A stretch of DNA of 64,000 bases from an uncultured Dehalococcoidia bacterium (GTDB lineage Bacteria; Chloroflexota; Dehalococcoidia; DSTF01; JALHUB01), in NCBI GenBank assembly GCA_964565775.1, contig CAZMGB010000006.1, positions 9,403 through 73,402 on the forward strand. The letters are read 5' to 3'. This document shows positions 16,953 through 33,900 of this stretch, in pieces (the first letter of the stretch is position 1; each line of letters opens with the position of its first letter). A model generated the notes under the pieces. The model was not told the origin of the DNA. It worked only from the letters and a program-made list of their open reading frames with translations, and ran no database searches. A program made the translations under genes and the position numbers.

Positions 16953-17735
16953 CTAGCGGCACAATCGTGCCCACCAGTCGCGTGTCATCGACTGCTGGGC
17001 GCTCGACAGCACCCTCCCCTTGGGAGACCTGCCGGATTCGCGCTTCCCCCTTGACGAGCGGCCCCTAGCGGGAGACGCTGAGAGGTCACCCGTGATCGTC
17101 GCCGCAGCATCATCCTCGGACTTAGCATCCGTGAGGCGCTCCCACCAGTTGCGTGTCAGCAACTGCTGCGCGCTCGACAGCATTCTCCCCTTGGGAGACC
17201 TGCCGGATTCGCGCTTCCTCCTTGACGAGCGGCCCCTAGCGGGAGACGCTGAGAGGCCACCGGCGATAGTCGCCGCAGCATCGTCTTCGGACTCGGCATC
17301 CGTGAGGCGCTCCCACCAGTCACGTGTCAGCAACTGCTGCGCTATCGACAGCTCTCGTCCGCTGCCATATCTCCTCGTGCCCGGGAGACCGGATATGCGA
17401 CGCGCAGTCATCAGGCCACCGGGGAAGAGGCGCGAAAACTGCCTCTTCGTCATGCCCAGCGCGTTGCAGGTGTAGCGGAGAGAAGCCGCGTTGCCGGTGG
17501 CTTCATAGTAGCTCCGCATGTAGTCGATGACGCGCCAGTGGTCGCTCGTCAGCTCATGGGCCCAGTCCCTCAGCCCTTGACGACGGGCCAGGTACAGGGC
17601 GGCTCCCGGGGTCCACTGAGAGGGGTCTATCATGAAGCCCCGCTCATTGACCTCAACAGGCGTCTCCCATACCACTGCGACAGCCTCAGTCGCTGCTCGC
17701 ATCTTGTTACCCTGGACGGTTGTCATCCTATTCAT
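16953..17735 (-). CDS. DsrC/TusE-like protein lacking both redox Cys, with a repeated WWERLT tail (cassette 1)
   Basis: Start re-called to ATG 17735 (RBS GAGGGAGGTGGG), matching the paralog N-termini (MNRMTTV). The DsrC fold region is NERGFMIDPSQW...HWRVIDYMRSYY. The C-terminus reads ARRISGLPGTRRYG in place of ACKIAGLPKPTGCV, followed by three copies of the AQQLLTRxWWERLT motif. Confidence 0.75.
   Translation of the reverse strand: MNRMTTVQGNKMRAATEAVAVVWETPVEVNERGFMIDPSQWTPGAALYLARRQGLRDWAHELTSDHWRVIDYMRSYYEATGNAASLRYTCNALGMTKRQFSRLFPGGLMTARRISGLPGTRRYGSGRELSIAQQLLTRDWWERLTDAESEDDAAATIAGGLSASPARGRSSRRKRESGRSPKGRMLSSAQQLLTRNWWERLTDAKSEDDAAATITGDLSASPARGRSSRGKRESGRSPKGRVLSSAQQSMTRDWWARLCR
16971..17350. 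repeat. 171-bp in-frame tandem repeat (2 full units plus a partial third)
   Basis: Unit starts (ccaccagt...) lie at 16971, 17142 and 17313. The units are nearly identical and encode a 57-aa tail unit. Confidence 0.8.
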
Positions 17736-17852
17736 AATCCCACCTCCCTCGGCCGTCTCCGGCCCGCTACCGAGCTGTGCACTGTTGGAGCGAGCTCTCG
17801 ACCAGCCGCTCGTGGGCGCTACCTCTTCTGAACCAGTCACCCGGCCGGAGCA

Positions 17853-18692
17853 CTAGTGCCCGCCCCGACGGGGGAACACGAACCCAATCGTAAGCCCCAT
17901 GGCGACGGCGATGGCAAGGGACATGGCGCCGTAGAGCGGAGCGTTGTCTTTGGACATAGTCCCAAGCGAGTCCACCACTCCAACCTTCTCGACGTTGAAG
18001 GTCGTCGCGTCGGATCCTACGACCTCACCGTTTCTCACGTAGTAAGCCTGCACGCTGTAGTCGCCCAACGGGGCATCGGACGGCAGGCTCATGAACGTCT
18101 CCCAGTCACCGCCATCGTCAAGCCGGATGATGCCGCCGCTGGGTGTAGCATCGCACTCCGCGGCTTCGACCTCGTGATAGCACACCCACGGCGTATACCG
18201 ACCGTCTCTGATATACATGTCGCGCAGGGCTGACACGAACTCCATCGCCTTCTCTTCCGTGAGCGGGCTTCCCTCGGCCGTGTCCACCGCCTGTGCTTCG
18301 TCCATAATCGAGGTGGCCGCCGGATCCACGCCCAGCCGGACCTGCGCCTCTCTGCCCAGGAGCACATCCACGGGCTTCGAACTCTGGATCACGTGGATGG
18401 TCGGCACGTTCTTCACCTTGGCTTGGTCGACCGTCATCCAGACCAGGCCCATTACTCTGCCCTTCTTGCTGATCTTGACCGAGTCCGCTGGGCCGTCGAC
18501 CACCACCACGATCTCCGCACCTCCGGGCGCGCTCCCGTAGATGCTCACGTCGGCGCCTCCGAAGTTCAGCCCGACCTTCACAGTCTCGGGTGAGACGCTC
18601 AGGCTCGCTTCCGCGCCAGCTCGCGCCACTACCGACGTAGCGGCGAAGAACGCACTCAGGAGAACGGCCGCAATGACTGCCGCTGCACGCAT
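17853..18692 (-). CDS. exported protein with C-terminal TM anchor, possibly TIGR02186/Alph_Pro_TM-like (cassette 1)
   Basis: Signal peptide, a beta-rich body and a C-terminal helix ending GFVFPRRGGH. Its start overlaps the permease stop (TGATG). Paralog of 24818..25681. Confidence 0.6.
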   Translation of the reverse strand: MRAAAVIAAVLLSAFFAATSVVARAGAEASLSVSPETVKVGLNFGGADVSIYGSAPGGAEIVVVVDGPADSVKISKKGRVMGLVWMTVDQAKVKNVPTIHVIQSSKPVDVLLGREAQVRLGVDPAATSIMDEAQAVDTAEGSPLTEEKAMEFVSALRDMYIRDGRYTPWVCYHEVEAAECDATPSGGIIRLDDGGDWETFMSLPSDAPLGDYSVQAYYVRNGEVVGSDATTFNVEKVGVVDSLGTMSKDNAPLYGAMSLAIAVAMGLTIGFVFPRRGGH

Positions 18693-19912
18693 CAGTGACC
18701 TCCTCCGCTCACCGCAGCCAGCCCGAACACACTGCCCGGAGCCAGCAACAGGTCAAACAGCAACTTCACCATCACGAGAACCACGATGATACCCAGGATC
18801 GTCCGCAACTGGTGGCCTTCCAAGCGGCCGCTCATCCGCGCTCCCATCTGGGCGCCGATGGCAGCGCCGAACATCAGTAGCACTGCGAGCAGGATGTCGA
18901 CGTTGTGGTTCGTGATGGCCTGCTGGAACGCCACATTCGTCGACGTGAACACTATCTGGAACAGGTCCGTCCCCACTGCCACGTGCGTTGGAATGCCGAG
19001 GACGTAGATCATGGACGGCACCATGATGAAGCCACCGCCCACGCCCATGATGGCGGCCAGGAACCCGACGCCCAAGCCCATCCCGGCGGGGAAGAGAGCC
19101 GACACCCGTATCCCCGCCTTGTTGTACTCCGTTTGCAGTGGCAGCCGGGCCACAAAGCGACGGAATCTACTTTCCTTCTTCGGCTTCTCTTCCTCGGCGA
19201 GCTTGACTCTCAGGTCCTCAAAGCCTTCGTCCACGAGGCTCTGGATAGCTCGGGTTCGGGAGCTACGGATCCATGTCCGCACGGATTCCCGCAGCATTAG
19301 GGTACCCATGGTGCCCAACATGACGACGTAGACCACCCGGACCCAGAAGTCGAAGTTGCCCATCTCGCGCAGGATGCTCACAACCCGCACGCCGAGGGTA
19401 CCGCCAAGAATGCTCCCCAGCAGGATCGTCACTCCCAGCTTGATATCGACGTTGCCCAGCCGTGAGTGAGCAAGCGCCCCCGACGAGCCGGTGCCCGCGA
19501 TCTGCGCACTGTCCGTGCCCACCGCCACCGCAGAGGGAACGCCGATCGTCATCAGCAGGGGCGTCATGAGGAAGCCGCCACCTACCCCGGTCATCCCCGA
19601 GAGGATGCCGACCGCGAAGCCAGCGCCCACCACCATGACAACATTCATGCTCTTGTCCGCCACCGGCAGGTACACCGTTAGCGTCGTGACGTTGGGCAAG
19701 GGTATCGCCCCTGCTGCCGCCCCCGCCAGCAGGACGAGCACTACCACCCCCGCAAGGAGTAGGGCGACGCCGCTCGGGCCCAGTGCCTGCGCGGCAGGCG
19801 GCAGGACACGCATTCGCCGGGGGACGGCAGGCGCCACCACCCCCCGTATGAGTGCCTGGTCTTCCCTGGTCAGTTCGACGGTCTCACTCGGCGGTCTCGA
19901 GGTTGCACGCAT
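18692..19912 (-). CDS. TauE/SafE (TSUP) permease with about 100-aa N-terminal extension (cassette 1)
   Basis: GVGGGFLMTPLL and GVGGGFIMVPSM motifs. The N-terminus TVELTREDQALIRGVVAP is shared with cassette 3. Confidence 0.8.
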   Translation of the reverse strand: MRATSRPPSETVELTREDQALIRGVVAPAVPRRMRVLPPAAQALGPSGVALLLAGVVVLVLLAGAAAGAIPLPNVTTLTVYLPVADKSMNVVMVVGAGFAVGILSGMTGVGGGFLMTPLLMTIGVPSAVAVGTDSAQIAGTGSSGALAHSRLGNVDIKLGVTILLGSILGGTLGVRVVSILREMGNFDFWVRVVYVVMLGTMGTLMLRESVRTWIRSSRTRAIQSLVDEGFEDLRVKLAEEEKPKKESRFRRFVARLPLQTEYNKAGIRVSALFPAGMGLGVGFLAAIMGVGGGFIMVPSMIYVLGIPTHVAVGTDLFQIVFTSTNVAFQQAITNHNVDILLAVLLMFGAAIGAQMGARMSGRLEGHQLRTILGIIVVLVMVKLLFDLLLAPGSVFGLAAVSGGGH

Positions 19913-19988
19913 ACCGTTTTCCCCTTCTCTCGGCCGGCGCCGCCGGTCTCGCGGTCGCTGCCTGAGAGCCCCCGCATCCTCGTGGCAC

Positions 19989-20018
19989 TTGCGCCCTAGA
20001 GCCGTGCCACGCTAGAAT
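19989..20018 (+). promoter_or_regulatory. sigma70-like promoter, copy 1 (TTGCGC-N18-TAGAAT), pointing away from the cassette operon
   Basis: The same hexamers at the same spacing recur at 23629 and 26974. The selA upstream region also has TGATAGAAT. Confidence 0.45.
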
Positions 20019-20023
20019 GCACG

Positions 20024-20095
20024 CGGTGACCCTCGCTCCATCGGGGCTCGCCATCATGGACCGTTGGTGGCGTCATCACCGGCGGTCCATTCCTT
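20024..20095 (+). ncRNA. candidate structured small RNA, copy 1 (P1 GGUGA/UCGCC enclosing a C-rich loop, then a 12-bp hairpin)
   Basis: Hairpin GGACCGTTGGTG (20058-20069), loop GCGTCAT, CACCGGCGGTCC (20077-20088). Differences between copies are G-U compatible only on the + strand. No transcript evidence. Confidence 0.35.
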
Positions 20096-20184
20096 GCGTC
20101 TTCCGCGCTAGGTCACAGACAATTGTCGATCCCGACAGATTGAGGTGACCCGCGACTCAAGGATGGCACAAGCCTATGGGCGTC

Positions 20185-20272
20185 GCATGAAGGCTAGGCC
20201 AGGTTATGGTGAAATAGCCCACAAGATTACCTGAAGTATGCGTGAAGCCTACATGAAGATTCCATGAAGGCA
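20185..20272. promoter_or_regulatory. helically phased array of 8 consecutive 11-bp units with core NTGAAG, copy 1
   Basis: Cores at 20187 ATGAAG, 20198 GCCAGG, 20209 GTGAAA, 20220 CACAAG, 20231 CTGAAG, 20242 GTGAAG, 20253 ATGAAG and 20264 ATGAAG. Confidence 0.6.
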
Positions 20273-20373
20273 AACCGCTATCGGCTGGCTCGTAGAATCA
20301 AATGCTAGGGAAAGAGCCGCCACGCGCCCTACCGCAACACCTGGCTCGTTAGCATTAGCAAAACGCGACGACG

Positions 20374-20416
20374 GCGTGAAAATACCGTGGGGATAGTATG
20401 AAGAGTTCGTGAAGAG
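20374..20416. promoter_or_regulatory. second short phased array (4 x 11 bp) upstream of cassette 1
   Basis: Cores at 20376 GTGAAA, 20387 GTGGGG, 20398 ATGAAG and 20409 GTGAAG. Confidence 0.45.
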
Positions 20417-20639
20417 CCGCGCGGCACACCGGTCTAGCCGCTACAGCGTGGCTCGAAAGGACCATCCGCCCCTGCTTCGAAGCCCGCCACACACTCGGCG
20501 ACACTGTCCCAAAGTGCTCCAGGCTCTCTCAGCCGCTTCCAGACCTCAAGCGAGGCCCTTCTTCGAGGAATAGCCGGCGACAGACAGGGGAAGTTGAGAG
20601 AGGACGACTGGTCTTCCGTAGAGGGTTAGGCTGGAACTC

Positions 20640-21455
20640 TCAGTACCCTTCGGCCAGCCACTCACCCGAGATTGTGGCCATGGATGCCGGCAAGGGTATG
20701 GTGTCCCAGGGCTGGCCCAGGCGACGCAGCATGCCAACGTTCCATATGCGGACGGAGTCTTGCCATCCCACAACGTCTCGCACGTGACGGGCTATCCTGT
20801 TGCACAGCTCCAGAAGGACGCTCCAGTCAAGGCTCAGACCCTGCCCGAGGTAGTGGTACTTTTCGTCGCCAGCGAGGGCCCACGGCGCATCCACGTCGGG
20901 AATATCAGGGCATACGATATCCACCCTCCCCTCACCGTGCGGCTCGAGCAGAATCTTCTCAACACGACACTGCCGAGCGAGGTCGACGAACACTTGCGAG
21001 AGGCCCGCCTCCTGGCCCAGGGGCTTAGTGATGCGACCGCCAACCCACGTCACACCTGCGATCTCGCCTCCAAGCACGCCCAGGAACTTTCCCTCCCTCA
21101 CCACCTGGGTCCGCGCCTTGACCGCCTCGCTGGACTCATCCGCGAGCGGCCCGTCCAGAAAAATGCCAAAGCGGCAGTCAAACCAGTGACACCCGAATGC
21201 CGCGTGTCGCGTCAGCTCTATGCGACTGACCTCCTCGCCCGCGAGCAGAATCACCGCCCGTGATCGAGGTGTCCCCAGGAGGCCTTTCTGCCGTTCTATG
21301 ACCATCCTGCATCTCACGCCTTCGCTGCGGAGATGCTGGGCGACCGCCTCTACCAGCTCGGTGTCTTTCATGGCGGATACCTTTCCCTCAAGCCGCCTCT
21401 CCCGCAATCGTGCGGGCCGCGACAACGCAGGCGGTTCAGGATTGGAGATGTTCAC
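20640..21455 (-). CDS. hypothetical protein, translationally coupled to the cassette-2 DsrC-like gene
   Basis: 271-aa ORF whose GTG start overlaps the upstream stop (GTGA). No recognisable motif. Confidence 0.45.
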   Translation of the reverse strand: MNISNPEPPALSRPARLRERRLEGKVSAMKDTELVEAVAQHLRSEGVRCRMVIERQKGLLGTPRSRAVILLAGEEVSRIELTRHAAFGCHWFDCRFGIFLDGPLADESSEAVKARTQVVREGKFLGVLGGEIAGVTWVGGRITKPLGQEAGLSQVFVDLARQCRVEKILLEPHGEGRVDIVCPDIPDVDAPWALAGDEKYHYLGQGLSLDWSVLLELCNRIARHVRDVVGWQDSVRIWNVGMLRRLGQPWDTIPLPASMATISGEWLAEGY

Positions 21456-21937
21456 AGAGGGAGACCGCTCCTCCCTGCGCTACCATCGTGGAACTCGGCA
21501 TCCGTGAGGCGCTCCCACCAGTTACGCGTCATCAACTGCTGCGCTATAGACAGCTCTCGTCCGTTGCCATATCTCCTGGTGCCCGGGAGACCGGATATGC
21601 GGCGCGCAGTCATCAAGCCGCCGGGGAAGAGGCGGGAGAACTGCTTCTTCGTCATGCCCAGCGCGTTGCAGGTAAACCGTAGCGAAGGGGCATTGTCGGT
21701 GGCGTTGTAGTAGACCCGCATGTAGTCGATTACGCGCCAGTGGTCGCTCGTCAGCTCGCGGGGCCAGCCCCTCAGCCCTTGACGACGGGCCAGGTACAGG
21801 GCAGCTCCCGGCGTCCACTGAGAGGGGTCTGTCATGAAGCCCCGCTCATTGACCTCAACCGGCGTTTCCTGTACCGCCGCGCCAGCCTCAGTGGCTGCAT
21901 GCGTCCTATTGCTTCGGACGGTTGTCATCGTAACCAC
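21452..21937 (-). CDS. DsrC/TusE-like protein lacking redox Cys, one WWERLT tail motif (cassette 2)
   Basis: Paralog of 16953..17735 (ETPVEVNERGFMTDPSQWTPGAALYLARRQGL..., tail SIAQQLMTRNWWERLTDAE). RBS GGGAGGTGGG. Confidence 0.75.
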   Translation of the reverse strand: MVTMTTVRSNRTHAATEAGAAVQETPVEVNERGFMTDPSQWTPGAALYLARRQGLRGWPRELTSDHWRVIDYMRVYYNATDNAPSLRFTCNALGMTKKQFSRLFPGGLMTARRISGLPGTRRYGNGRELSIAQQLMTRNWWERLTDAEFHDGSAGRSGLPL

Positions 21938-22054
21938 GATCCCACCTCCCTCGGCCGTCTCCGGCCCGCTACCGAGCTGCTCACCCCTGGAGCGGTCCCG
22001 CCAGCTAGCCGTTCGCCCGTGCTACCTCCTCCGGGCCGGACACCCATCCAGACG

Positions 22055-22130
22055 TTGGTGGTCGGCCCGCCGCCGAGGGAACACGAGTTCGGTGCCCAGC
22101 CCGGCGCCCACGACAATGCGCAGGGATACC
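22055..22130 (-). pseudogene. 3' remnant (about 25 codons) of a TIGR02186-like cassette gene
   Basis: Aligns with the last codons of 24818..25681 (..VFPRRRADH) with the stop mutated to CAA. It lies directly after the stop of the cassette-2 permease. Confidence 0.5.
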
Positions 22131-22132
22131 TC

Positions 22133-23230
22133 CTACCCACCGATAGCTTCAGCAGCTCTCGTACCCTCGAGGATCAGCCTCGCCCGCTGGCGCAGCTCTT
22201 CTTCTCTCTTGCCCTTGAACATGGCTCGAATGATGAGACCGCCGGCGATGAAGAGAGTCCCGTAGAGCACCACTCGACTCACGTTTTCCAGCAAATCGTA
22301 TGTCGTGCCACCCACGCTTATGACCCCCAGGTCCGACAGGTATGCAGGAATCATCACCGCTCTGCTGACCGAGGCCAGGAGCATGATGACAGCGGTGACG
22401 AGCTTGATCATGTATTGTCTGACATAGCTTGTGCCGAGAGCGCCGACTTGCACGCCGACCAGGGAACCAGCCAGGATAATGACGGTCAACCGAAGGTCGA
22501 CGAACCCACGTATCGCCCACTCGTAAGTGCCCTCCGCTCCCATACAGAAGGCGACGATCAGCTCGGTTCCGCTGGCCACAAAGGCGGGGGCGCCGACCAC
22601 GTAGATCATCGCCGGCACGCCGATGAATCCGCCAACGGCTATCGTCGCGGCAAGCATGCCGGTGGCGAAGCCCAGAGGCACCGTGACCCACACTGAGACC
22701 TTCGCGTCCGCCTTCTTGAAATACACCATTGGCGGCAGGTTAAGGCGGGCCACCCGTTTGGCGAAGCTCGGCACCACGTCATCGACGTCCCTGCGCGCCG
22801 CCTTGCGAGCGTCCATCAGCATGTACGTCGCGACGGTAAACAGTACGACCACGAAGGTCACACTGATATAGAGGTCTGAGCCAGCGTCACCCCAGGCGTC
22901 CAGAATGATGTTCTGGATCTGCACACCCACCTTCACGCCAGCGATGGCGGACACAGCCATCACCAACCCCAGCTTCAGGTCGACGTGGCCAAGCTTTCTC
23001 CTCCGCCAGGCCCCAACAAGGGCCTTGGGGAACTTGTGCGCCATATTGCTGGCCACAGCTACGGATCCCGGTACCCCCAGGTTCATCATGCCCGGTGTCA
23101 GCACGAACGCGCCGCCGCTGCCGATGAAGCCGCTCAACATCCCGCCCAGAAAGCCGAGCGTGAACAGAGCCAGTACGGTTAGCAGCCCGATGTCGATGAA
23201 GGATATGTCCCCGTTTGCGGCAGACTCCAT
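22133..23230 (-). CDS. TauE/SafE (TSUP) permease (cassette 2, subtype like paralog 0)
   Basis: GSGGAFVLTPGM and an IAVGGFIGVPAM half-repeat, with a central loop motif (LNLPPMVYF) like IPLWPMIYL of paralog 0. Confidence 0.8.
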   Translation of the reverse strand: MESAANGDISFIDIGLLTVLALFTLGFLGGMLSGFIGSGGAFVLTPGMMNLGVPGSVAVASNMAHKFPKALVGAWRRRKLGHVDLKLGLVMAVSAIAGVKVGVQIQNIILDAWGDAGSDLYISVTFVVVLFTVATYMLMDARKAARRDVDDVVPSFAKRVARLNLPPMVYFKKADAKVSVWVTVPLGFATGMLAATIAVGGFIGVPAMIYVVGAPAFVASGTELIVAFCMGAEGTYEWAIRGFVDLRLTVIILAGSLVGVQVGALGTSYVRQYMIKLVTAVIMLLASVSRAVMIPAYLSDLGVISVGGTTYDLLENVSRVVLYGTLFIAGGLIIRAMFKGKREEELRQRARLILEGTRAAEAIGG

Positions 23231-23233
23231 CGG

Positions 23234-23554
23234 TTATCCCTTCTTGAGTTCCCGGATGCCGAGAAGCTCGAGCAAGGCGCCGGCAAAGCTCCCGTGGATC
23301 ACGCTGAAGGTCAGCGCCAGGCCAAGCACTGCCATAGCGCCGCCGATCGTGCCGGATGTGAGGCGAGGGAAGATGTCCTCGATGAAGCCGAAAAACAGCC
23401 CATACGCCGCAATGGAGGCGGCCCCAAACACGATGAGCCCAACAAGCGAGCGCGAGCGCCCCGCTCGACGTACGACAGCAACCTGCCGGACAAGCTCTTG
23501 GTCTGATCTGACCAGTTCCTCTGTCCTAGTCGTGGGTACCGCAATCCCAACCAT
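23234..23554 (-). CDS. small two-TM membrane protein preceding the cassette-2 permease
   Basis: Start re-called to ATG 23554 (RBS AAGGAGAAG). The longer track ORF would run through the conserved non-coding element. The N-terminus TEELVRSDQELVRQV resembles the N-terminal extension of the cassette 1 and 3 permeases. Confidence 0.55.
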   Translation of the reverse strand: MVGIAVPTTRTEELVRSDQELVRQVAVVRRAGRSRSLVGLIVFGAASIAAYGLFFGFIEDIFPRLTSGTIGGAMAVLGLALTFSVIHGSFAGALLELLGIRELKKG

Positions 23555-23628
23555 CGACTTCTCCTTGCCTACTGATGCCTTGCACGACCCCGGCGGCACG
23601 TACCCGGAAAGCACGCATCGCGACCAAG

Positions 23629-23658
23629 TTGCGCGCTCCGGGTCCGCAGTGCTACAAT
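23629..23658 (+). promoter_or_regulatory. sigma70-like promoter, copy 2 (TTGCGC-N18-TACAAT with TG extension)
   Basis: TTGCGC at 23629-23634 and TGCTACAAT ending at 23658. Confidence 0.45.
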
Positions 23659-23663
23659 GCACG

Positions 23664-23735
23664 TGGCGATCCCCCTGCAGTGGAGCTCGCCATCTCGGGC
23701 CGCTGGTGGCGCTAACACCGGCGGTCCCTTGCATA
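23664..23735 (+). ncRNA. candidate structured small RNA, copy 2
   Basis: P1 GGCGA (23665-23669) / TCGCC (23687-23691). Hairpin GGGCCGCTGGTG (23697-23708), loop GCGCTAA, CACCGGCGGTCC (23716-23727). Confidence 0.35.
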
Positions 23736-23794
23736 TGTATTCCGCGTTCGGTCACATACCGTTGCCGCTACCGACGAGCACGGGTGGCCGACAA

Positions 23795-23910
23795 ATGAAG
23801 CATGTCACAACCTTGCGTAGCTCGCATGAACGCTGCCGCAAGCCTTCATGAAAAAGGCCCCAAGACTCCGTGCAGATAGCATGAGGTCTACATGAGTCCT
23901 CGATGAACCC
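23795..23910. promoter_or_regulatory. 11-bp phased NTGAAG-type array, copy 2
   Basis: ATGA cores at 23826, 23848, 23881, 23892 and 23903 are all in one 11-bp register, with weaker cores between them. An out-of-register ATGAAG-N5-CACAA at 23795 is homologous to 27130 in copy 3. Confidence 0.55.
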
Positions 23911-24149
23911 GCCGGAGCCTCTGGCTACAGTCCGGACTCAAACCCCACAGCGTGAGCCGCCACGAAGCCTGCGACGAGACGCGGCCGACTGGCCGCCGTC
24001 GCAGTCACGCTAACCTTAGACCAGGGCCAGGTTAGTGTTAGCGGAGTGCCAGAACAGAGTGAGGCGGAAGTGAGGAACGTATTAGGATTAGATGAAGCTA
24101 TGGAAGCGTCGGGCAGAAGACCGGTTCAGCCGCTATGGCGAGGTTCGGA

Positions 24150-24229
24150 GCGAAGGCGGCACCGTAGAGGCACTCACCCACCCTCCTCCGGCATGTAGCC
24201 CACCCCGCGCATCGTCTGGACGACGTGGC
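24150..24229 (-). pseudogene. scar of a deleted two-component system: last ~17 codons of an OmpR-type RR plus first ~7 codons of the HK
   Basis: The minus strand reads ..VVQTMRGVGYMPEEGG-stop-GTG-PLRCRL, against the intact junction at 28640-28700 (..LIQTIRAVGYMLKEGA-stop-GTG-PLRLRL). Confidence 0.55.
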
Positions 24230-24733
24230 TCAGAGCTTCGGAGGAACGCGCTGCAGGGGTGCGTCACGCGGGATTCCATCCTCTTCGGACCCAGCACCCG
24301 TGAGGCGCTCCCACCAGTCGCGTGTCATCAACTGCTGCGCTATCGACACTTCCCGTCGGTTGGCGGACCTTCTCGGCCCCGGAAGACCGGATATGCGGCG
24401 CACGGTCATCAGGCCACCGGGGAAGAGGCGGGTGAAGTGCCTCTTCGTCATGCCCAGCGCACGGCAGGTGTACCGGAGCGAAGGGGCATTGCCGGTGGCC
24501 TCATAGTAGACCCGCATGTAGTCGATAACACGCCAGTGGTCGCTCGTCAGCTCATGGGGCCAGTCCTTGAGCCCCTGATGACGGGCCAGGTACAGGGCAG
24601 CTCCCGGCGTCCACTGAGAGGGGTCTGTCATGAAGCCCCGCTCATTGACCTCAACCGGCGTTTCCTGTACCGCCGCGACAGCCTCAGTTGCAGCCTGCGT
24701 CTTACTGTCTCCGACGGTTGTCATCCTGTTCAT
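24230..24733 (-). CDS. DsrC/TusE-like protein lacking redox Cys, one WWERLT tail motif (cassette 3)
   Basis: Paralog of the other two (MNRMTTV..., tail SIAQQLMTRDWWERLTGAG). Confidence 0.75.
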   Translation of the reverse strand: MNRMTTVGDSKTQAATEAVAAVQETPVEVNERGFMTDPSQWTPGAALYLARHQGLKDWPHELTSDHWRVIDYMRVYYEATGNAPSLRYTCRALGMTKRHFTRLFPGGLMTVRRISGLPGPRRSANRREVSIAQQLMTRDWWERLTGAGSEEDGIPRDAPLQRVPPKL

Positions 24734-24817
24734 AATCCCACCTCCCTCGGCCGTCTCCGGCCCGCAGCTAGCCGCTCGCCTGTGCTACCTCTTCCGAGCC
24801 ACACGCCCATCCAGGCG

Positions 24818-25681
24818 TCAGTGGTCGGCCCGCCGCCGAGGGAACACGAATCCGGTGGCCAGCCCGACGGCGATGATGATGCCCAGGCACAACGCGCCGT
24901 AGAGCGGAGCTTTGTCCTTCGCCATCGAGCCGAGCGAGTCCACCAAGCCGGCCTTCCTGACACTGAAGGTCGCCGAGTCGGACCCGACCACCTGGCCATC
25001 CTTGATGCAATACGAGTCCACGGTGTAGTCACCGAGCGGGGCATCCCAAGACAGGCTAACCCACGTCTCCCATCGCCCATTCTTCAGATGGATGACGTTA
25101 TCGCCCGGCGCCGTGCCGGCCGCCGTGTCCCCCACACTGGCCGCGGCCACCGGTAGCGCGCCCTGACAGCTCGGGCACGCGACGTAGCGGCCGTCCCTGA
25201 TGTACATGTCACGGAGCCCCGCTATGAACTCCGCCGCCTTATCCTCCGAGACCGCCGTCCCCTCACCCGGGTCGACCGCCCGGGCCTGGCTCACGATAGA
25301 CGCGGACATGGGGTCCACGCCCAGTCGGAGCTGCTCTTCCTGGCTCAAGATCTTGTCTATCTCGTCCGAGCTGTAGACCACGTGGAAGGCCGGCATGTTC
25401 TCAACCTGAGCGTGGCCGACGGTCATCCAGAAGAGTCCCAGCACCTTGCCCTTCTTGCTTACCTTCACGGAGTCCGTCGGCCCGTCGACCTTGAGAACCA
25501 CCTGCGTACCCTCGGGCGCCGTCCCATAGACGTGTACGTCGTACCCCGTGAAGTCCAACCCAACGTCCACGACGCTCGGCGAGACGCTCATGGTCGGCCC
25601 CTCGTCAGCCCACGCCGACTGCGCCGTCGCGGTCAAGAAGGTGGCGAGGAGAAGAGAAACGAAGCACAGGAGCGCACGCAT
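24818..25681 (-). CDS. exported protein with C-terminal TM anchor, possibly TIGR02186/Alph_Pro_TM-like (cassette 3)
   Basis: 287-aa paralog of 17853..18692 (VSPSVVDVGLDFTGYDVHVYGTAP..., C-terminal GFVFPRRRADH). Confidence 0.6.
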   Translation of the reverse strand: MRALLCFVSLLLATFLTATAQSAWADEGPTMSVSPSVVDVGLDFTGYDVHVYGTAPEGTQVVLKVDGPTDSVKVSKKGKVLGLFWMTVGHAQVENMPAFHVVYSSDEIDKILSQEEQLRLGVDPMSASIVSQARAVDPGEGTAVSEDKAAEFIAGLRDMYIRDGRYVACPSCQGALPVAAASVGDTAAGTAPGDNVIHLKNGRWETWVSLSWDAPLGDYTVDSYCIKDGQVVGSDSATFSVRKAGLVDSLGSMAKDKAPLYGALCLGIIIAVGLATGFVFPRRRADH

Positions 25682-26898
25682 CAGTGACCTCCTCCACCTA
25701 CCGAAACCACCCCGAACACACTGCCCGGAGCCATCAGCAGGTCAAACAGCAACTTGATCATCACCAGGAGCACGATGACACTCAGAATCGTCCGCAACTG
25801 GTGGCCTTCCAGGCGGCCGCTCATCCGCGCCCCCACCTGGGCGCCGATGGCGGCGCCAACCAGCAACAGCACGCCGAGCAAGATATCGACGTTGTGGTTG
25901 GTGATCGCCTGCTGGAACGCCACGTTCGAGGACGTGAAGACCATCTGGAAGAGGCTTGTCCCTACCGCAACGTGTGTCGGGACGCCGAGGATGTAGATCA
26001 TCGCCGGCACCATGATGAAGCCACCGCCCACCCCCATCAGGGCAGTCAGCAAGCCGATACTCAGACCCAGACCGAAGGGAAAGAGCAAAGAGGCACGTAT
26101 CTTCGAGGTGTGGAAGTCCATCTGGAGTGGCCAGCGAGCCGTAACGCCGCCCGACCGTCCTGCGTCCGGCTGCTCCCGCGCTACGAGCTTTGCCCCCCCT
26201 TCGTCGGAGCCCTCACCCACCGCGCTCCTGATGATTTGGGGCCGCGTGCTGCGCACCCAGGTCCGCACGGCCTCCCGCAACATGAAGCTGCCGACACTGC
26301 CCAGCATGATGATGTAGACTATTCGGACGCAGAAGTCGAAGTTGCCCATCTCGCGCAGCAAGTAGACGACACGCACGCCGACGGTGCCGCCGATAAGGGC
26401 CCCAACCAGGATCACCAACCCCAGTTTGACATCGACGTTGCCCAGCCTCGAATGGCCGAGTGCCCCCGATGAGGCGGTGCCCGCGATCTGCGCACTGTCC
26501 GTGCCCACCGCCACCGCAGAGGGAATGCCGATCGTCATCAGCAGGGGCGTCATGAGAAAGCCGCCACCCACCCCCGTCATCCCGGAGAGAATGCCGACCG
26601 CGAAGCCGATACCCACCAGTGGGACGACATTCATGCTCTTGTCCGCCACCGGCAGGTAGATCGTTAGCGTGAAGATGTTGGGCAAGGGTATCGCCCCCGC
26701 TGCCGTCCCCGCCAGCAGGACGAGCACCACCACCCCCGCAAGAAGAAGCGCGACGCCGCTCAGGCCCAGCGCGTGCGCGACAGGCAGCAGGACACGCAGC
26801 CCACGGGGTGCGGTGGGGGCCACCACCCCTCGAATGAGTGCCTGGTCCTCCCTGGTCAGTTCGACGGTGTCGGTCGGCGGTGGTAAGGTCGAACTCAT
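25681..26898 (-). CDS. TauE/SafE (TSUP) permease with N-terminal extension (cassette 3)
   Basis: Start re-called to ATG 26898 (RBS GAGGGGAAG) to match the cassette-1 paralog (MSSTLPPPTDTVELTREDQALIRG). The track start at 27075 would read through the conserved non-coding element. Confidence 0.8.
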   Translation of the reverse strand: MSSTLPPPTDTVELTREDQALIRGVVAPTAPRGLRVLLPVAHALGLSGVALLLAGVVVLVLLAGTAAGAIPLPNIFTLTIYLPVADKSMNVVPLVGIGFAVGILSGMTGVGGGFLMTPLLMTIGIPSAVAVGTDSAQIAGTASSGALGHSRLGNVDVKLGLVILVGALIGGTVGVRVVYLLREMGNFDFCVRIVYIIMLGSVGSFMLREAVRTWVRSTRPQIIRSAVGEGSDEGGAKLVAREQPDAGRSGGVTARWPLQMDFHTSKIRASLLFPFGLGLSIGLLTALMGVGGGFIMVPAMIYILGVPTHVAVGTSLFQMVFTSSNVAFQQAITNHNVDILLGVLLLVGAAIGAQVGARMSGRLEGHQLRTILSVIVLLVMIKLLFDLLMAPGSVFGVVSVGGGGH

Positions 26899-26973
26899 CA
26901 GCTTCCCCTCACTTGCTGCTTGGTACCACCAGCCCGGCGGCGGTTGCCTCGGAAGTGGTGCATCGCCACAACG

Positions 26974-27003
26974 TTGCGCGCTCCAGGATCGCCATGCTAG
27001 AAT
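26974..27003 (+). promoter_or_regulatory. sigma70-like promoter, copy 3 (TTGCGC-N18-TAGAAT with TG extension)
   Basis: TTGCGC at 26974-26979 and TGCTAGAAT ending at 27003. Confidence 0.45.
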
Positions 27004-27008
27004 GCGCG

Positions 27009-27080
27009 CGGCGACCCTCCCTCCGCTGGAGCTCGCCATCCTGGGCCGCCGGTGGTACCAGCACCGGCGGTCCACTTATG
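27009..27080 (+). ncRNA. candidate structured small RNA, copy 3
   Basis: P1 GGCGA/TCGCC enclosing CCCTCCCTCCGCTGGAGC. Hairpin GGGCCGCCGGTG (27043-27054), loop GTACCAG, CACCGGCGGTCC (27062-27073). Confidence 0.35.
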
Positions 27081-27125
27081 TCAATGTTCACATACAGTCT
27101 GCACAGGAGCTCACCGCGATGCTCC

Positions 27126-27245
27126 GTGAATGAAGAATGCCACAAGCAGGAGCGACCTGCATGAACAGACGCTGAAGGCAGATTCAGAATGGAGTCAGGA
27201 TTGCGTTACAGGATGATAAGGGAGGTATTAAGGCTTCACGAAGCG
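27126..27245. promoter_or_regulatory. 11-bp phased NTGAAG-type array, copy 3, abutting the HK stop
   Basis: Cores at 27161 ATGAAC, 27172 CTGAAG, 27183 TTCAGA, 27194 GTCAGG, 27205 GTTACA, 27216 ATAAGG, 27227 ATTAAG and 27238 ACGAAG, plus ATGAAG 27130 and CACAAG 27141. Confidence 0.5.
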
Positions 27246-27269
27246 GAGGGGGGCTGCTGGGTGGCGGGG

Positions 27270-28646
27270 TCAGCCCATTACAGGCAGGTCGACAACAAAG
27301 GTTGTGCCGCGTCCGGGCTGGCTGGTCACCTTGACGGTGCCATCGTGCGCCTCGACTATGTACTTCACGATCGCCAGGCCAAGGCCGCTTCCTTCGCTGC
27401 TGGTAGCCCGAGCTTCTTGCCCTCGGTAGAAGCGATCAAAGATGTGGGGCAGGTCCTCCTCCGAGATGCCGATGCCCGTATCCCGGACTTCCAGCCGCGC
27501 CAGCCCGTCAAGAAGGCGAAGGCGCAGTTCGATGCGGCCCCCCTCTGGCGTGTACTCGGCGGCGTTCTCCAAGAGGTTCCAGAGCATCTGCCCCAGCCGC
27601 TTCTCATCACCCTCGATCCGCGCCCCGGCCTTTATCTTCGCCACCAACTCGTGGCGGCTATCCTGAGCCCGAAGACGGGCCGCGGCTTCTTCGCAGGCTG
27701 ACGACCAGTCCACGGGGGCCTTGGCGATCTCCTGTCGCCCCTCGCGCGAGAGGAGGAGGAGGTCGGACAGGAGACGGCTCATCGCCTCCGCCTCGGCGCG
27801 CATCTCCCGAAGGCAGACCCCACGCTCCTCCGTCGACAGCGAAGGGTCGCGCAGGATGTCGATGTTGGTTCGCAGCACCGTGAGCGGGCGGCGCAACTCA
27901 TGGGAGGAGTCAGCGAGGAAGGCCTTCTGCGTCTCCAGCGTTCGCTCCACCCGCTTGATCATGGAGTTGAAGGTGCCGGTGAGCTCCGCCATCTCGTCGC
28001 CTGCGGCGGAGGCAGGAACGCGACGGCTGAAATCGGCCGTCCGCTCGATGTCGCGCGCCAGTCGAGAAACGCGCCGAACGGGCTCAAGGACGCGCCCCGC
28101 CAGCAAGTAGGCCGGCACGTTGGTGATCAGCAGGACGACTATGCCGCCAAAGATGAGCGTGGTGCGGATCTGGTTCAGCGCCTCGTCTCTGTCCTTCAGA
28201 CTCTGACCCGTCACCACACTCCCCAGCGTCTCGCCGCCCTCCGTGATGGGTTGGTATTGAATGCGAAAGCGCTGCCCCCGAACGGTGGCAGTGACCAACG
28301 TCGGCTTCTCTAGGGTTGCCATGTCTGGCAGGGGAAGGTTGAGACTGCCCGGCGGGAAAGATGAATAGACTACGCTTTCATCGAGGCTGCGTACCTGAAA
28401 GAGGATACCAGAGGAGGCCTCATTGTCCAGCCTCAGCCACTGGTTCTCGCGCATGGTCTCCACGGACAGGGGGGGGTCAATGGGCGTGAGGGCCAGGATT
28501 ACGGCCGAGCCCTGGAGCTTCAGCCTCTCGTCTACACTGTCAGAAATCCTGCTCGCCGTGATGGTGTAGACGGACAGACTCAGTGCCGCCAGCGACCCGG
28601 CCAGGAGCACCACGTACACCAGGGTGAGGCGGAGCCGTAGTGGCAC
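27270..28646 (-). CDS. sensor histidine kinase (periplasmic loop, HAMP, HisKA, HATPase_c)
   Basis: Two TM helices flank a ~130-aa loop. H-box SHELRRPLT, N box LLENAAEYTP, G boxes DTGIGI and GSGLGLAIV. Confidence 0.85.
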   Translation of the reverse strand: MPLRLRLTLVYVVLLAGSLAALSLSVYTITASRISDSVDERLKLQGSAVILALTPIDPPLSVETMRENQWLRLDNEASSGILFQVRSLDESVVYSSFPPGSLNLPLPDMATLEKPTLVTATVRGQRFRIQYQPITEGGETLGSVVTGQSLKDRDEALNQIRTTLIFGGIVVLLITNVPAYLLAGRVLEPVRRVSRLARDIERTADFSRRVPASAAGDEMAELTGTFNSMIKRVERTLETQKAFLADSSHELRRPLTVLRTNIDILRDPSLSTEERGVCLREMRAEAEAMSRLLSDLLLLSREGRQEIAKAPVDWSSACEEAAARLRAQDSRHELVAKIKAGARIEGDEKRLGQMLWNLLENAAEYTPEGGRIELRLRLLDGLARLEVRDTGIGISEEDLPHIFDRFYRGQEARATSSEGSGLGLAIVKYIVEAHDGTVKVTSQPGRGTTFVVDLPVMG

Positions 28647-29399
28647 TCATGCACCCTCCTTCAGCATGTAGCCCACCGCGCGGATCGTCTGGATGAGGCG
28701 GGGCCGGCCACCCGCTTCCAGCTTCTGCCGCACGTTCGCTACGTGAACATCAATGACGTTCGACTCAACGGGAGACTCCTCACCCCAGAGGCCCACCAGC
28801 AGCTCCTCTCTGGTCAGGACTTGCTCTGGCGACCGCATCAGTTGCTCAAGCAGCCGGAACTCCGTCGCGGTCAGCAGCAGCGGCTCCCCTCCACGCGTCA
28901 CCGTCCACGCTTTTCGATCGAGCACCAGATCAGCATATGATAGCCGCTCCGTCGGGGCAGCGCTCGGGCGGCTGCGCCGGAGCAGAGCCTGCATGCGCGC
29001 CACCAGCTCGTCGAAGGCGAACGGCTTGACGAGGTAATCGTCCGCACCGGCTTCCAGACCGGCGACGCGGTCAGGGACACTGTCCCGAGCGGTCAACATG
29101 AGGATGGGCGTGTTCTCCGTCTCACGCACCAGCCGGCACAGGCTGAGGCCATCCATCCCGGGCATCATGATGTCCAGGACGATGATGTCTGGCCACCGCC
29201 CGCGCAGGTAGCCGAGCGCTTCACCAGAGTCACGCGCCAGGCCCACATTGAAGCCGTGCAGCGATAGGCCCCGTCGTAGCGCGGCCAGCAATCGCCGGTC
29301 GTCGTCTACCACGAGCACATGAGGCTGCCCGGAGCCCTCGCCACCTGAAGAGCCGGCCCCGCCAGAGCTGGAACGTGGGTTCCTGGTATCCTGCGACAC
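28647..29399 (-). CDS. OmpR/PhoB-family response regulator
   Basis: REC domain (VLVVDDD...DIIVLDIMMPGMDG...K) plus a winged-helix output (LTATEFRLLEQL...IQTIRAVGYML). Its stop abuts the HK GTG start. Confidence 0.85.
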   Translation of the reverse strand: MSQDTRNPRSSSGGAGSSGGEGSGQPHVLVVDDDRRLLAALRRGLSLHGFNVGLARDSGEALGYLRGRWPDIIVLDIMMPGMDGLSLCRLVRETENTPILMLTARDSVPDRVAGLEAGADDYLVKPFAFDELVARMQALLRRSRPSAAPTERLSYADLVLDRKAWTVTRGGEPLLLTATEFRLLEQLMRSPEQVLTREELLVGLWGEESPVESNVIDVHVANVRQKLEAGGRPRLIQTIRAVGYMLKEGA

Positions 29400-30982: not shown

Positions 30983-33900
30983 TTAGGACTGGGGCTTCGG
31001 CATGCGGTAGCCGACTCGCGGCTCAGTGGAGATGTATCTGGGGTCCCTTGCGTCGTCGCCCAGCTTCTGGCGCAGGTCGCGGATGAAGGAGCGGAGGAGA
31101 CCGGTCTCCCCGGAGTAGGCGGCTCCCCACACGCGCTGGAGTATCTGGTCGTGGGTGAGGACCCGGCCGGCGTGGATGGCCAGTTCGTACAGCAGCTTGT
31201 ACTGAGTGGCGGAAAGGGAGATGGCCCGACCCCCGACCGTAACGCGCCGTTCTACGAAGTTGATGGTGAGGTCATCCAGCACGAAGGGTGCACGTGACTC
31301 CGCCGCATCGGACGGAAGCCGACGCCGGAGGGCGGCCTCTATACGGGCGACTAGCTCCGAGGGGGAGAAGGGCTTCCGGATGTAATCGTCCGCCCCCATC
31401 TTCAGAGCGCGCACGGAGTCTTCCTCTTTCGGGCTGGCCGTAATAACGATCACCGGCACATCAGAAATCTCCCGCACTCGTTCAAGCACCTCGAAGCCGC
31501 TGATACCGGGCAGCATGAGGTCCAGCAGGAAGAGTTCGGGCTCCTCAAGCTCAACGAGCCTCGGGACCTCCCGCGGGTCGGTGGTCACTACCGCTTCGTA
31601 CCCGGCCTCGTGAAGCGCACGCCGGAGGTATCGCAGAACCTGAGGCTCGTCGTCGAGAGCAAGGATCCGCGGCCGCTCACCCGCCCGGCTTACCCTACCG
31701 CCGTCCATCTTCTCCCAGCCTGCCTCGAGCGTAGAGGCGACACTGGCATCGGAGGCCATCGGGAGGGTGAAGCTGAAGGTCGACCCTCTCCCCAGGCCCT
31801 CGCTTTCCGCCCAGATGCGTCCACCGTGGGCCTCTATGATGCCCTTGCAGATGGCGAGCCCCAACCCACTGCCTCCCAGTCCTCGTGCCTGCTCTTCGTG
31901 GATCTGCGAGAACTTCTTGAACAGATGGGGGAGCTTCTCCGCCGGGATTCCTCGTCCGCGGTCGCGTACGTGCACTGTGACATGAAGAGGTCCGGGCTCC
32001 ACGGTGATGCTGATCTGCTCCGCCTGCGGCGAGAACTTGGCTGCATTGCTCAGGAGGTTCGACAGCACCTGTGCGACGCGTCCCCTGTCGGCGTTGACGG
32101 CGGGAAGGTCTTCCGGGACCTGGATCTGGACTTCGTGTGAGTCGCCGCCGCGGGCGAAAGTTGCCGTGGCCTCTTCCAGGACGGCCTTCAGGTCGGTGGG
32201 CTCCGGGCTGACTGAGAGAGAGCCGGCCTCGATGCGCGTCATGTCCAGGAGGTTGTCCACCAGCCCCGCCAGACGATCCGCTTGCTCGTCAATGATCTGA
32301 AAGAAACCGCGGGCTCTGGCGGCGTCGAGGGACCCCTGCCTGCCCAGCGCCATCGCCGCCGAACCCTTGATTGCCGTCAGGGGGGTCTTCAGCTCGTGGC
32401 TTACCACGCCCAGGAACTCGCTGCGGAGCCTCTCCACCTCTTGCAGAGGAGTGATGTCCTGGATGGTGGCAATGGCCCCGGCGATCTCACCTTCGGTGGA
32501 GTATATGGGTGTCGTGTTGATCAGCGTTGGCACGACCCGTCCATCCGGCAGGTCGAACGTGACCTCCTCCGCGCGCACAGCCTCGCCGCGGTACAGGGCG
32601 CGCTGAAGCGGGAGTTCCTCCACCGCGTAGGGATGGCCGCTGGCCTGGCGATACACCGCCGCCTGCTCATACCGCTCCAACCGGTCGTCGGGCCGGTAGG
32701 AGAAGCCCACGATGCGCTCCATCTCAGCGTTAGCGAGAAGAACGCCTCCGTCGGCGTCTACGACGAAGATGCCCACCGGTGATGTGGCCATGAGTGCCTC
32801 TAGACGCTGCCGCTCCGTCCGCACCGCCTCCTCCGCCCACTTGCGCTCGACGATGCGCCCAAGCCGTTCGGCTATGGCCTCGAGCAGGCTCCTCTCCTCC
32901 CTGAGGAAAGGGCCCTCGTTGCTCTCCGGCCTTTCTTCCAGGTAGCAGACCTCTACGCCGCCGACGCGCTCGCCACGCACCCTGATGTCGGACACCTGCC
33001 TCCAGGGGGTTTCTCTGAACTTCTCTGTCCTGAAGTCCTGGTCTCCCAAGGTGATCCGCGCACACGTCACATCCGGATACTGCCAGGATGGGGGAATCAG
33101 ATCGGCTGTCCTCTGAAGTAGCTCTTCCAGCGAGATCTCGGGCACCTCAAGGAGTTGCTGAGTGCGCTCCCGCAGCGCCTCCTCCGCACGGTCTCGTTGG
33201 ACGGTGCGCCCCAGGCGCTCGGCTATGGCGTCGATCAAGCTCCTCTCCTCCTGGAGGAAAGGACCTTCATAGGCTTCCGGCCTCTCTTCCAGGTAGCAGA
33301 CCTCCACGCTGCCGACCCGTTCGCCACGCACCCTGATGTCGGACACCTGCCTCCAGGGGGTTTCTCTGAACTTCTCTGTCTTGAACTCCTGGTCTCCCAA
33401 CGTGATCCGCGCACACGTGATGTCCGGATACTGCCAGGCCGGGGGAACGAGGCCGACTGTCCCCCGAAGTATCTGCTCGAGCGAGATGCCGGGCGTCTGA
33501 TTCAGCTCGGAGATGCCGAAGAGGCAATTCAGCTTCTTGACTCGCTCACCGAGCTGATGAGTGCCCTCTCGGAGGGCTTCCTCCATCTGCCTGCGCTCGG
33601 TGACGTCGCGTGCGGCTATAGCGAACCCTTGTAGCTGTCCGGAGTCGTCTCGCAGGGCGACAGTGACGACGTTCGTCCGGAACTGCGAGTCATCCTTGCG
33701 GACCCACGAACCCTCCTCTTGAACCCGACCCTTGGCTGCGGCCAGCTTGAGATCCTTCCCGGGCTTGCCGCGGTCACGCTCCTTCACCGGATAGAAGCAC
33801 GAGAAGTGCTTCCCCACGATCTCCTCCGCCCTATAGCCCATGATCTGTTCCGCCCCTGGGCCCCAACTGATGACATTCCCTTCGGGGCCGAGCAGGAAGA

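Follow-up and report, generated by a model that had tools for sequence, protein, structure and literature searches.

Arrays of 11-bp direct repeats before three TauE–DsrC-like gene cassettes of an uncultured Dehalococcoidia bacterium: candidate operators of an adjacent OmpR-type two-component system

In a 64-kb stretch of DNA from an uncultured member of the Dehalococcoidia (the window, by which we mean the whole of this stretch), three related gene cassettes follow one another on the minus strand, and the genes of an OmpR-type two-component system (TCS) lie directly upstream of the third. Cassette 1 (16953–19912) comprises genes for a TauE/SafE protein (18692–19912), a TIGR02186/Alph_Pro_TM protein (17853–18692) and a DsrC-like protein (16953–17840). 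Cassette 2 (20640–23554) starts with an open reading frame for 106 aa (23234–23554), continues with genes for TauE (22133–23230) and a DsrC-like protein (21452–21937), and ends with one for a 271-aa protein without family assignment (20640–21455). Cassette 3 (24230–26898) again has TauE (25681–26898, with its ATG at 26898), Alph_Pro_TM (24818–25681) and DsrC-like (24230–24733) genes. The TCS, also on the minus strand, consists of a response regulator (RR) of the OmpR/PhoB family (28647–29399; REC and Trans_reg_C domains, recognition helix ...ESNVIDVHVANVRQK) and a sensor histidine kinase (HK; 27270–28646; 2CSK_N, HAMP, HisKA and HATPase_c domains). In front of each cassette stands an array of hexamers repeated at intervals of exactly 11 bp, and it is these arrays, which are most likely operators of the adjacent RR such that one TCS would serve all three cassettes, that are our subject.

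All arrays are read towards the cassettes on the minus strand, and their units are given here as they appear on the plus strand. Main array 1 (20187–20274) has eight units, ATGAAG, GCCAGG, GTGAAA, CACAAG, CTGAAG, GTGAAG, ATGAAG and ATGAAG, exactly the cores that a first-pass annotation had listed at 20187 + 11k; on the cassette strand they are direct repeats of CTTCAT type. Main array 2 (23826–23913: ATGAAC, CGCAAG, ATGAAA, CCCAAG, GTGCAG, ATGAGG, ATGAGT, ATGAAC) and main array 3 (27161–27248: ATGAAC, CTGAAG, TTCAGA, GTCAGG, GTTACA, ATAAGG, ATTAAG, ACGAAG) are of the same length. The annotation had rightly recognized these two as homologous arrays, but its spans for them, 23795–23910 and 27126–27245, each combine an eight-unit array with a separate conserved box to which we return below. 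Likewise, it had placed array 3 beside the TCS, with which the stop codon of the HK gene at 27270 agrees, the gap being 22 bp and not 25. Secondary arrays of six to eight units lie 80–100 bp from the main arrays and are confined to spacers behind another cassette. Secondary array 1 (20354–20419) had been described as four units at 20376–20414; those four cores at 20376 + 11k are correct, but they belong to six in-phase units (ATTAGC, GCGACG, GTGAAA, GTGGGG, ATGAAG, GTGAAG). Secondary array 2 (24015–24102) has eight (CTTAGA, GCCAGG, GTTAGC, GCCAGA, GTGAGG, GTGAGG, ATTAGG, ATGAAG). Relative to its main array, each of the two secondary arrays is shifted by +2 bp (modulo 11), and a phase relation between the two is suggested because the offset is shared though the gaps differ by about 21 bp; secondary arrays may add upstream occupancy or permit looping.

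The arrays stand out clearly from the rest of the window. Of the 89 copies of TGAAG in the 64 kb, seven lie within a single 250-nt stretch from 20161, the sole such cluster on the plus strand, and a chain of eight positions set 11 bp apart from 20188 holds five; elsewhere in the window, at periods of 5–20 and on both strands, no chain of this length held more than two. When a matrix of 11 columns, trained on loci outside the window alone, was scored over eight units, it recovered 20187–20274 (41.6), 23826–23913 (37.9), 24015–24102 (28.6), 27161–27248 (28.3) and 20343–20430 (22.3), thus finding arrays in front of the three cassettes exclusively and bearing out the claim that every cassette has one. 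On neither strand of the 64 kb did this matrix find a sixth array, the next real match scoring 3.0, where 20 shuffled sequences reached 12.3 at most. The GC content over the arrays is lower (0.47–0.55) than that of the surrounding DNA (0.6–0.75), as had also been noted earlier. Each array is part of a larger upstream region (19950–20460, 23590–24100 and 26935–27275), and these regions are paralogous throughout, with a mean column identity of 66%.

Related loci were collected first as Alph_Pro_TM homologues, which come from uncultured Dehalococcoidia, and then through a pattern scan of metagenomes. Across about 20 of them the phase is held over 8, 10 or 12 units, even though their Alph_Pro_TM proteins are just 55–70% identical. 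The first-pass annotation had staked its reading on conservation of the periodicity in orthologous loci, and the reading withstood this test: when a window-only matrix was applied to 14 foreign loci at periods of 8–14, a period of 11 scored highest in 13, in most cases with a lead of about 40 score units. Over 154 units the core is RTKARG on the plus strand (T2 73%, A4 85%, R5 90%, G6 65%), or CYTMAY, typically CTTCAT or CTTAAT, on the cassette strand, and all units have one orientation (direct, not inverted). This is looser than the NTGAAG originally proposed: the repeats are real, but a literal NTGAAN is present in just 44 of the 154. Each unit carries about 3.9 bits of information, almost none of it in the spacer positions. 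In 17 further or paralogous copies the arrays end with ATGAAG, beyond which the score collapses. Unit counts are even throughout (8, 10 and 12, with 4 in locus L040 and 4+2 in a variant class), which is consistent with binding as dimers. No indel was found inside 17 arrays (16, plus the 12-unit array of L037), spacing being exactly 11 bp in every one, whereas the spacer between the box and the hairpin element beyond it varies from 33 to 76 nt, so that indels are tolerated beside the arrays and not within them.

It might be supposed that the arrays are the neutral remains of an ancient 11-bp tandem duplication that spread with the cassettes and has no function. The three window copies are indeed paralogous, and Tandem Repeats Finder reports a weak repeat of 2.5 copies at the array and nothing more, its signal being weak because the spacers between the cores are unrelated. 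That phase and core have been kept while the spacers were randomized, in some 20 loci whose proteins have diverged so far and whose flanking non-coding DNA freely takes indels, is not what such an origin would leave behind; moreover, arrays also precede a quite different operon (see below). The comparative data already effectively refute this idea, to which we attach negligible probability.

What, then, binds the arrays? The order RR–HK–array–cassette is conserved in relatives; on the longer relative contigs the succession of RR, HK, spacer and TauE is retained, and one metagenome-assembled genome has a three-cassette layout identical to that of the window. In other Chloroflexota, ATGAAG/ATTAAG repeats at 11 bp are found in the short spacer between the HK gene of a related TCS and an operon of DegT, epimerase and GT2 genes (8142–8244 in L040; 7124–7204 in L046 and L047). 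These operons lack TauE and DsrC-like genes and have the TCS directly upstream, with RRs 65–72% identical to that of the window (72% in L040). The repeats thus go with the TCS and not with the cassettes. In addition, the core co-varies with the recognition helix: where the helix starts with Ser-Asn (helix region VESNV(I/V)DVH; the window, L007, L008, L037 and L040) the cores are RTKARG, and where it starts with Asp/Ala-His (VE(D/A)HV(I/V)DVH; L004, L039 and L041) they are NTCAAR, still at 11 bp. (L027 has the variant core, but its RR lies off the contig.) The Ser-Asn aligns with T187–N188 of BasR (PmrA) of Escherichia coli, and the equivalents of V192, H193 and N196 are also kept. For PmrA, contacts to the TAA of CTTAAT are described for T187, N188, V192 and H195, that of N188 being to the AA (PMC10570014), and the base that differs between our two core classes is position 4 of the hexamer. 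Together with the periodicity, the synteny and a relic of the TCS between cassettes described below, these observations favour the earlier prediction of RR operators served by one TCS for the three cassettes.

The arrays might instead be bound by another protein, with the TCS a bystander or acting elsewhere, and two candidates for this had been put forward: the DsrC-like proteins without the C-terminal cysteine (Cys), one of which is encoded by every cassette, and a hybrid protein (30983–34057, minus strand; a single polypeptide of 1024 aa with the domains PAS-PAS-HisKA-HATPase-REC-Trans_reg_C) which shares the Trans_reg_C type of DNA-binding domain; an unlinked regulator would be a third. The DsrC-like candidate is disfavoured by the DegT operons, which have the repeats and no DsrC-like gene. 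The recognition helix of the hybrid protein (ETGLLRSFIRDLRQKL) is unlike that of the RR, the two proteins being 36% identical where their receiver and DNA-binding region can be aligned, and the gene is not syntenic: L007 and L008 have no hybrid at a distance of up to 8 kb. As the repeat core moreover co-varies with the helix of the RR itself, we regard a different binder as quite unlikely. (The hybrid gene has an internal duplication of 351 nt, seen as a tandem repeat at 32819–33494, upstream of the kinase core in its PAS and weak GAF region.)

Several points weigh against the RR as the binder or limit what may be concluded. The organism is known from metagenome-assembled genomes alone. The upstream region of the RR gene has no array, and hence no autoregulatory site. 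In L042 and L044, which have more distant relatives of the TCS, convergent genes follow the HK and there is no clear array. In L011 (5860–8001) and L012 an orphan RR (helix ...ESDVIDVHVSNLRQK), with no HK, is encoded 184 bp upstream of TauE–Alph_Pro_TM–DsrC genes, and such loci have neither array nor small RNA (sRNA) gene. The co-variation of core and helix probably goes back to one change only, in a single clade. Finally, arrays of 8–12 units are longer than any characterized operator of the OmpR family that we can cite.

Beside each array, 14–15 bp away on the cassette side, is the conserved box mentioned above, whose sequence on the cassette strand is TTGTGnCATTCT, and the same architecture of box, 14–15 bp gap and array recurs in 17 further or paralogous copies. 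In the window the boxes, all on the minus strand, are box 1 (CTTGTGCCATCCTTGAG, 20156–20172, 14 bp from its array), box 2 (GTTGTGACATGCTTCAT, 23795–23811) and box 3 (CTTGTGGCATTCTTCAT, 27130–27146). In those 17 copies the sequence is (A/G)TTAAGAATGCCACAAG on the strand corresponding to the window's plus strand; over 21 copies it is cTTGTGgCATtCTTnAT on the cassette strand. The TRTG-type extended –10 is a known motif of Gram-positive promoters, and we infer that the box is a promoter of this type with a weak hexamer and without a –35 element. In box 1 the TGTG would be at 20167–20170 and the –10 hexamer (CATCCT) at 20160–20165, with transcription starting near 20153; the hexamers of boxes 2 and 3 would be CATGCT (23799–23804) and CATTCT (27134–27139). 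Numbered accordingly, all 21 copies of the box have A at –11 and T at –7, and 20 have TG at –15/–14. Taken as an extended –10, the box puts the nearest unit of the array at about –39 to –34 and an eight-unit array out to about –121 (for main array 1, about –34 to –121 in all). About 25 nt separate the box of L040 from the Shine–Dalgarno sequence (GGAGGAGG) and ATG downstream of it, a short leader that leaves little space for another promoter.

The case for a promoter has its own weaknesses. T is never present at the proposed –12, and the box can also be read on the plus strand as AAGAAT, so that the strand is assigned from context, namely from L040, from the TRTG and from where the array lies. 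A standard sigma-70 scan of the three upstream regions found no promoter-like site; the –10 of the box, and also the –35 (TTGCGC) of the sRNA promoter described below, score below the thresholds of that scan. A terminator scan of the same regions gave terminator-like sites at chance level alone, on the minus strand, in two of the three. By eye, the stretch from the sRNA promoter to the start of TauE showed no conserved –10-like element.

The RR could also bind the arrays and yet be a repressor, a roadblock (for instance to read-through out of genes upstream) or a looping element (for instance joining main and secondary arrays) instead of a class-II-like activator, the box then being an RR site or the promoter of a plus-strand transcript. 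The second half of the box (CTTCAT/CTTAAT) does resemble an array unit, its plus-strand reading is also –10-like, and the secondary arrays lie 80–100 bp away with a common offset in both copies; furthermore, ArcA, whose sites likewise consist of several repeats, represses in most cases (PMC3798270). Examined as an RR site of two hexamers (CTTGTG-N5-CTTAAT), the box was rejected: its first hexamer scores poorly on the unit matrix, and its second stays CTTCAT in L004, L039 and L041, where the array core changes, which argues that the box is probably not bound by the RR. The conserved TRTG with A–11 and T–7 sits on the cassette strand, the box of L040 immediately precedes its Shine–Dalgarno sequence and ATG, and repeats that would end near –34 in front of a candidate promoter lacking a –35 hexamer have the geometry of promoters activated by PhoB and PmrA. 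We think these other roles unlikely, and activation the better reading.

Between the box and each cassette lies a further conserved element, which the first-pass annotation had called a promoter/hairpin element. It is not the promoter of the cassette, but a separate gene for an sRNA on the opposite strand. Copy 1 (20024–20099, plus strand) follows a promoter TTGCGC-N18-TAGAAT (19989–20018) and would give an RNA of about 75 nt with a hairpin P1, a GC-rich terminator hairpin of 12 bp (20058–20088) and a T-rich tail. Copy 2 (23664–23738) has TTGCGC at 23629–23634, TACAAT at 23653–23658 and its terminator hairpin at 23697–23728; copy 3 (27009–27084) has TTGCGC at 26974–26979, TAGAAT at 26998–27003 and the hairpin at 27043–27073, both likewise on the plus strand. 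In orthologues the promoter hexamers are conserved while the sequence between them is free. The strand is indicated by compensatory changes in 9 of 19 pairs of the hairpins, by many G-U pairs at positions that would be C-A mismatches on the minus strand, and by a covariance model that finds exactly three copies on the plus strand of the window (81, 80 and 67 bits) and whose matches to the minus strand involve nothing but the terminator stem, which is palindromic (17–26 bits). The terminator is GGnCCGnCGGTG / CACCGGCGGTCC, and its GC stem and T-rich tail imply a terminated RNA that ends before the arrays. The sRNA is also found beside unrelated genes (after a Pyr_redox gene at 1600–1676 of L017, and convergent with GtrA at 2610–2687 of L025), whereas L004, L039, L040 and L041 have box and array and neither the sRNA nor its promoter; sRNA and array are thus separable modules. 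At gathering thresholds Rfam finds only one tRNA in the whole window and, with E values up to 10, only chance snoRNA matches in 19900–20650, with no family over the arrays or the hairpin element. It looks as if this is an undescribed sRNA family of the Chloroflexota. If the promoter assignment of the box is right, the cassette transcript would have a leader of about 230–240 nt that is antisense to the entire sRNA.

Could the repeats act as RNA rather than DNA? A plus-strand transcript, arising by read-through from the sRNA or starting at the box, would contain AUGAAG repeats that might titrate an RNA-binding protein in the manner of CsrB or RsmZ. In keeping with this, a conserved plus-strand promoter lies upstream, the box can be read as a plus-strand –10, and the repeats are asymmetric between strands, being purine-rich on the plus strand. 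Protein-sponge RNAs have their motifs in loops, with variable spacing. The exact 11-nt phase over 88–132 nt, the even counts and the free spacers are what a constraint from the DNA helix predicts; moreover, the conserved terminator intervenes between the sRNA and the arrays, four loci have arrays with no sRNA promoter at all, and Rfam has no matching family. We judge a role as RNA very unlikely, and return to the arrays as operators.

Two other elements accompany the sRNA gene. A conserved and partly palindromic motif (CGCATCGCGATGG in relatives) abuts its –35 hexamer (19975–19988, 23615–23628 and 26960–26973) and could be the site of a regulator of the sRNA promoter. Between the sRNA terminator and the box there is a GTCACA(N)AC element (20112–20125, 23751–23760 and 27087–27096), which is conserved in related loci and in several of them is an inverted repeat (TCACAAC-N3-TTGTG or CTTGTG-N8-CACAAG).

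How does a single TCS come to stand beside three cassettes? The spacer between cassettes 3 and 2 contains, at 24154–24223 (minus strand), a relic of the 3′ end of an RR gene and the start of an HK gene that is 86% identical to 28627–28696 (E 1e-19), and a weaker RR-like piece at 20465–20510 is 74% identical to 29041–29086. This indicates that a unit of TCS and cassette was duplicated in tandem to give the cassettes, and that the extra TCS copies then decayed. The arrays were retained despite this decay, as they should be if all three are served by the TCS that survives. As to the cassettes themselves, ...SGLPGTRRYG... stands at the end of their DsrC-like proteins, in which the C-terminal Cys arm of canonical DsrC is missing. 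A literature search for TIGR02186, Alph_Pro_TM and PF09608 found no paper. In cassette 1 the 3′ part of the DsrC-like gene contains a 171-nt tandem repeat (16970–17352; 2.2 copies, 91% matches), encoding a segment of 57 aa (...SIAQQLLTRDWWERLTDA...) that doubles the protein's own C-terminal motif.

We consider it probable that the phosphorylated RR occupies the arrays as cooperatively bound dimers and is the activator of all three cassettes. A scheme that connects binding by the RR, activation rather than repression, the promoter with its start site, and a role for the sRNA might run as follows. The HK (27270–28646) would phosphorylate the RR, and head-to-tail dimers, each covering 22 bp, would nucleate on the strong units at both ends of an array, namely the proximal cATGAAg and the distal ATTAAG–ATGAAG pair, the weak inner units then being filled cooperatively, in the way reported for complex PhoP operators (PMC2275107) and for ArcA sites with many repeats (PMC3798270). 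The protomer at about –39 to –34 would recruit RNA polymerase to the promoter lacking a –35, in the fashion of PhoB and PmrA, and transcription would continue through the leader of about 230–240 nt into TauE. The convergent sRNA would probably set a threshold, by antisense pairing or transcriptional interference. That one TCS attends to three cassettes would be a consequence of the tandem duplication and subsequent loss just described. A more elaborate version, in which the RR forms a filament of 4–6 dimers on 88–132 bp of weak sites in phase, joined by a phase-locked secondary array about 100 bp away, making the response ultrasensitive, and in which this all-or-none activator constitutes a bistable toggle for a family of sulfur-transporter cassettes together with the convergent antisense sRNA in the leader and its constitutive promoter, seems to us unlikely.

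Operators of broadly this kind are known. In the pmra-box, XTTAAY-N5-XTTAAY takes the place of the –35, while PhoB occupies –41 to –25 at pstS (PMC10570014). As in the pmra-box, the window has direct repeats of a hexamer with 5-bp spacers (an 11-bp period) in the same orientation relative to the coding strand, abutting a candidate promoter without a –35, and the half-sites are comparable (CTTAAT/CTTCAT here, CTTAAT/CCTAAG there). The HK has a 2CSK_N sensor domain, as in PmrAB, and the occurrence of related TCSs upstream of DegT, epimerase and GT2 genes is reminiscent of arn. The differences are also considerable: only 14 of the 154 units fit XTTAAY, the commonest unit being CTTCAT, with C or A at position 4; there are 8–12 units instead of two, and the proximal hexamer lies about 4 bp further upstream; the targets are TauE/TIGR02186/DsrC-like cassettes; and the RR, 38% identical to BasR of E. 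coli, is no orthologue of PmrA, its closest solved relatives being the actinobacterial PrrA, MtrA and PhoP (of Mycobacterium tuberculosis), which score far better. Judged from sequence, the arrays seem to function in the manner of PhoB, PmrA and PhoP operators without being a pmra-box in the strict sense.

A second parallel is with PhoP of Streptomyces, which binds direct repeat units of 11 nt, up to six per operator, by cooperative spreading from core units, and whose binding is abolished by loss of 1 nt (PMC2275107). In Streptomyces coelicolor the PHO operators of class III (the complex ones) likewise have exact 11-nt units, with a well-conserved core flanked by poorly conserved units whose occupancy requires cooperative binding, and their sensitivity to a single nucleotide is paralleled by the strict absence of indels from arrays of the window type. 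The S. coelicolor PhoP unit is of G/T-TCAY type, and motif, phylum and regulon all differ; besides, the PhoP operators have been footprinted, whereas the arrays are known from sequence, and six units at most compare with 8–12 here plus a secondary array of six to eight. The sites of ArcA in E. coli comprise two to five direct repeats whose centres are 11 bp apart (PMC3798270). This spacing is shared with our arrays, as is the unequal strength of units (reflected in ArcA by concentration-dependent occupancy), but ArcA is mostly a repressor, and its sites are shorter, overlap promoters and commonly have odd counts, where ours are even. As a cis-antisense or convergent-promoter switch, prgQ/prgX of pCF10 offers a precedent for the sRNA: in both, a constitutive-looking promoter is aimed at a regulated one about 130 bp away, with overlapping transcripts, but the antisense partner here is a terminated sRNA of about 75 nt that also occurs beside unrelated genes (L017 and L025). 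What is unusual about the present system is the number of units (8–12, where those cited have 2–6), the fact that this number is always even and the presence of an sRNA gene inside the predicted leader.

We know of almost no description of cis-regulatory logic in the Dehalococcoidia, and for this uncultured lineage the locus allows a regulatory hypothesis that is complete, running from kinase and RR through arrays, promoter and antisense sRNA to three cassettes. The repeat motif can be used to predict the regulon of this TCS family, which it already ties to an arn-like DegT/epimerase/GT2 operon. Long even arrays would be a good model for the effects of array length and unit strength on the response curve, and the signal that induces the HK would supply a first functional handle on the TauE–TIGR02186–DsrC-like module.

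Finally, we draw attention to some further features. A second group of loci (L013, L014, L016, L021, L024, L026, L028, L029 and L034) has a layout similar to that of the sRNA genes but no arrays: a TAGAAT is followed by a GGCGCTG...AGCGTC hairpin, a GCCGTTGGTG-7-CACCGGCGGC hairpin and a T-rich tail. The five of them that were searched (L013, L014, L024, L028 and L034) match the sRNA model weakly, at 22–24 bits, and these elements may be distant relatives of the sRNA. Near the sulfur-related cassettes is selA, for L-seryl-tRNA(Sec) selenium transferase (34574–35953, plus strand). Elsewhere in the window, Tandem Repeats Finder reports a 91-nt repeat in 2.6 copies (50082–50319) and an array of 120/240-nt repeats (42971–43542), the latter suspected to be TPR-like coding sequence.

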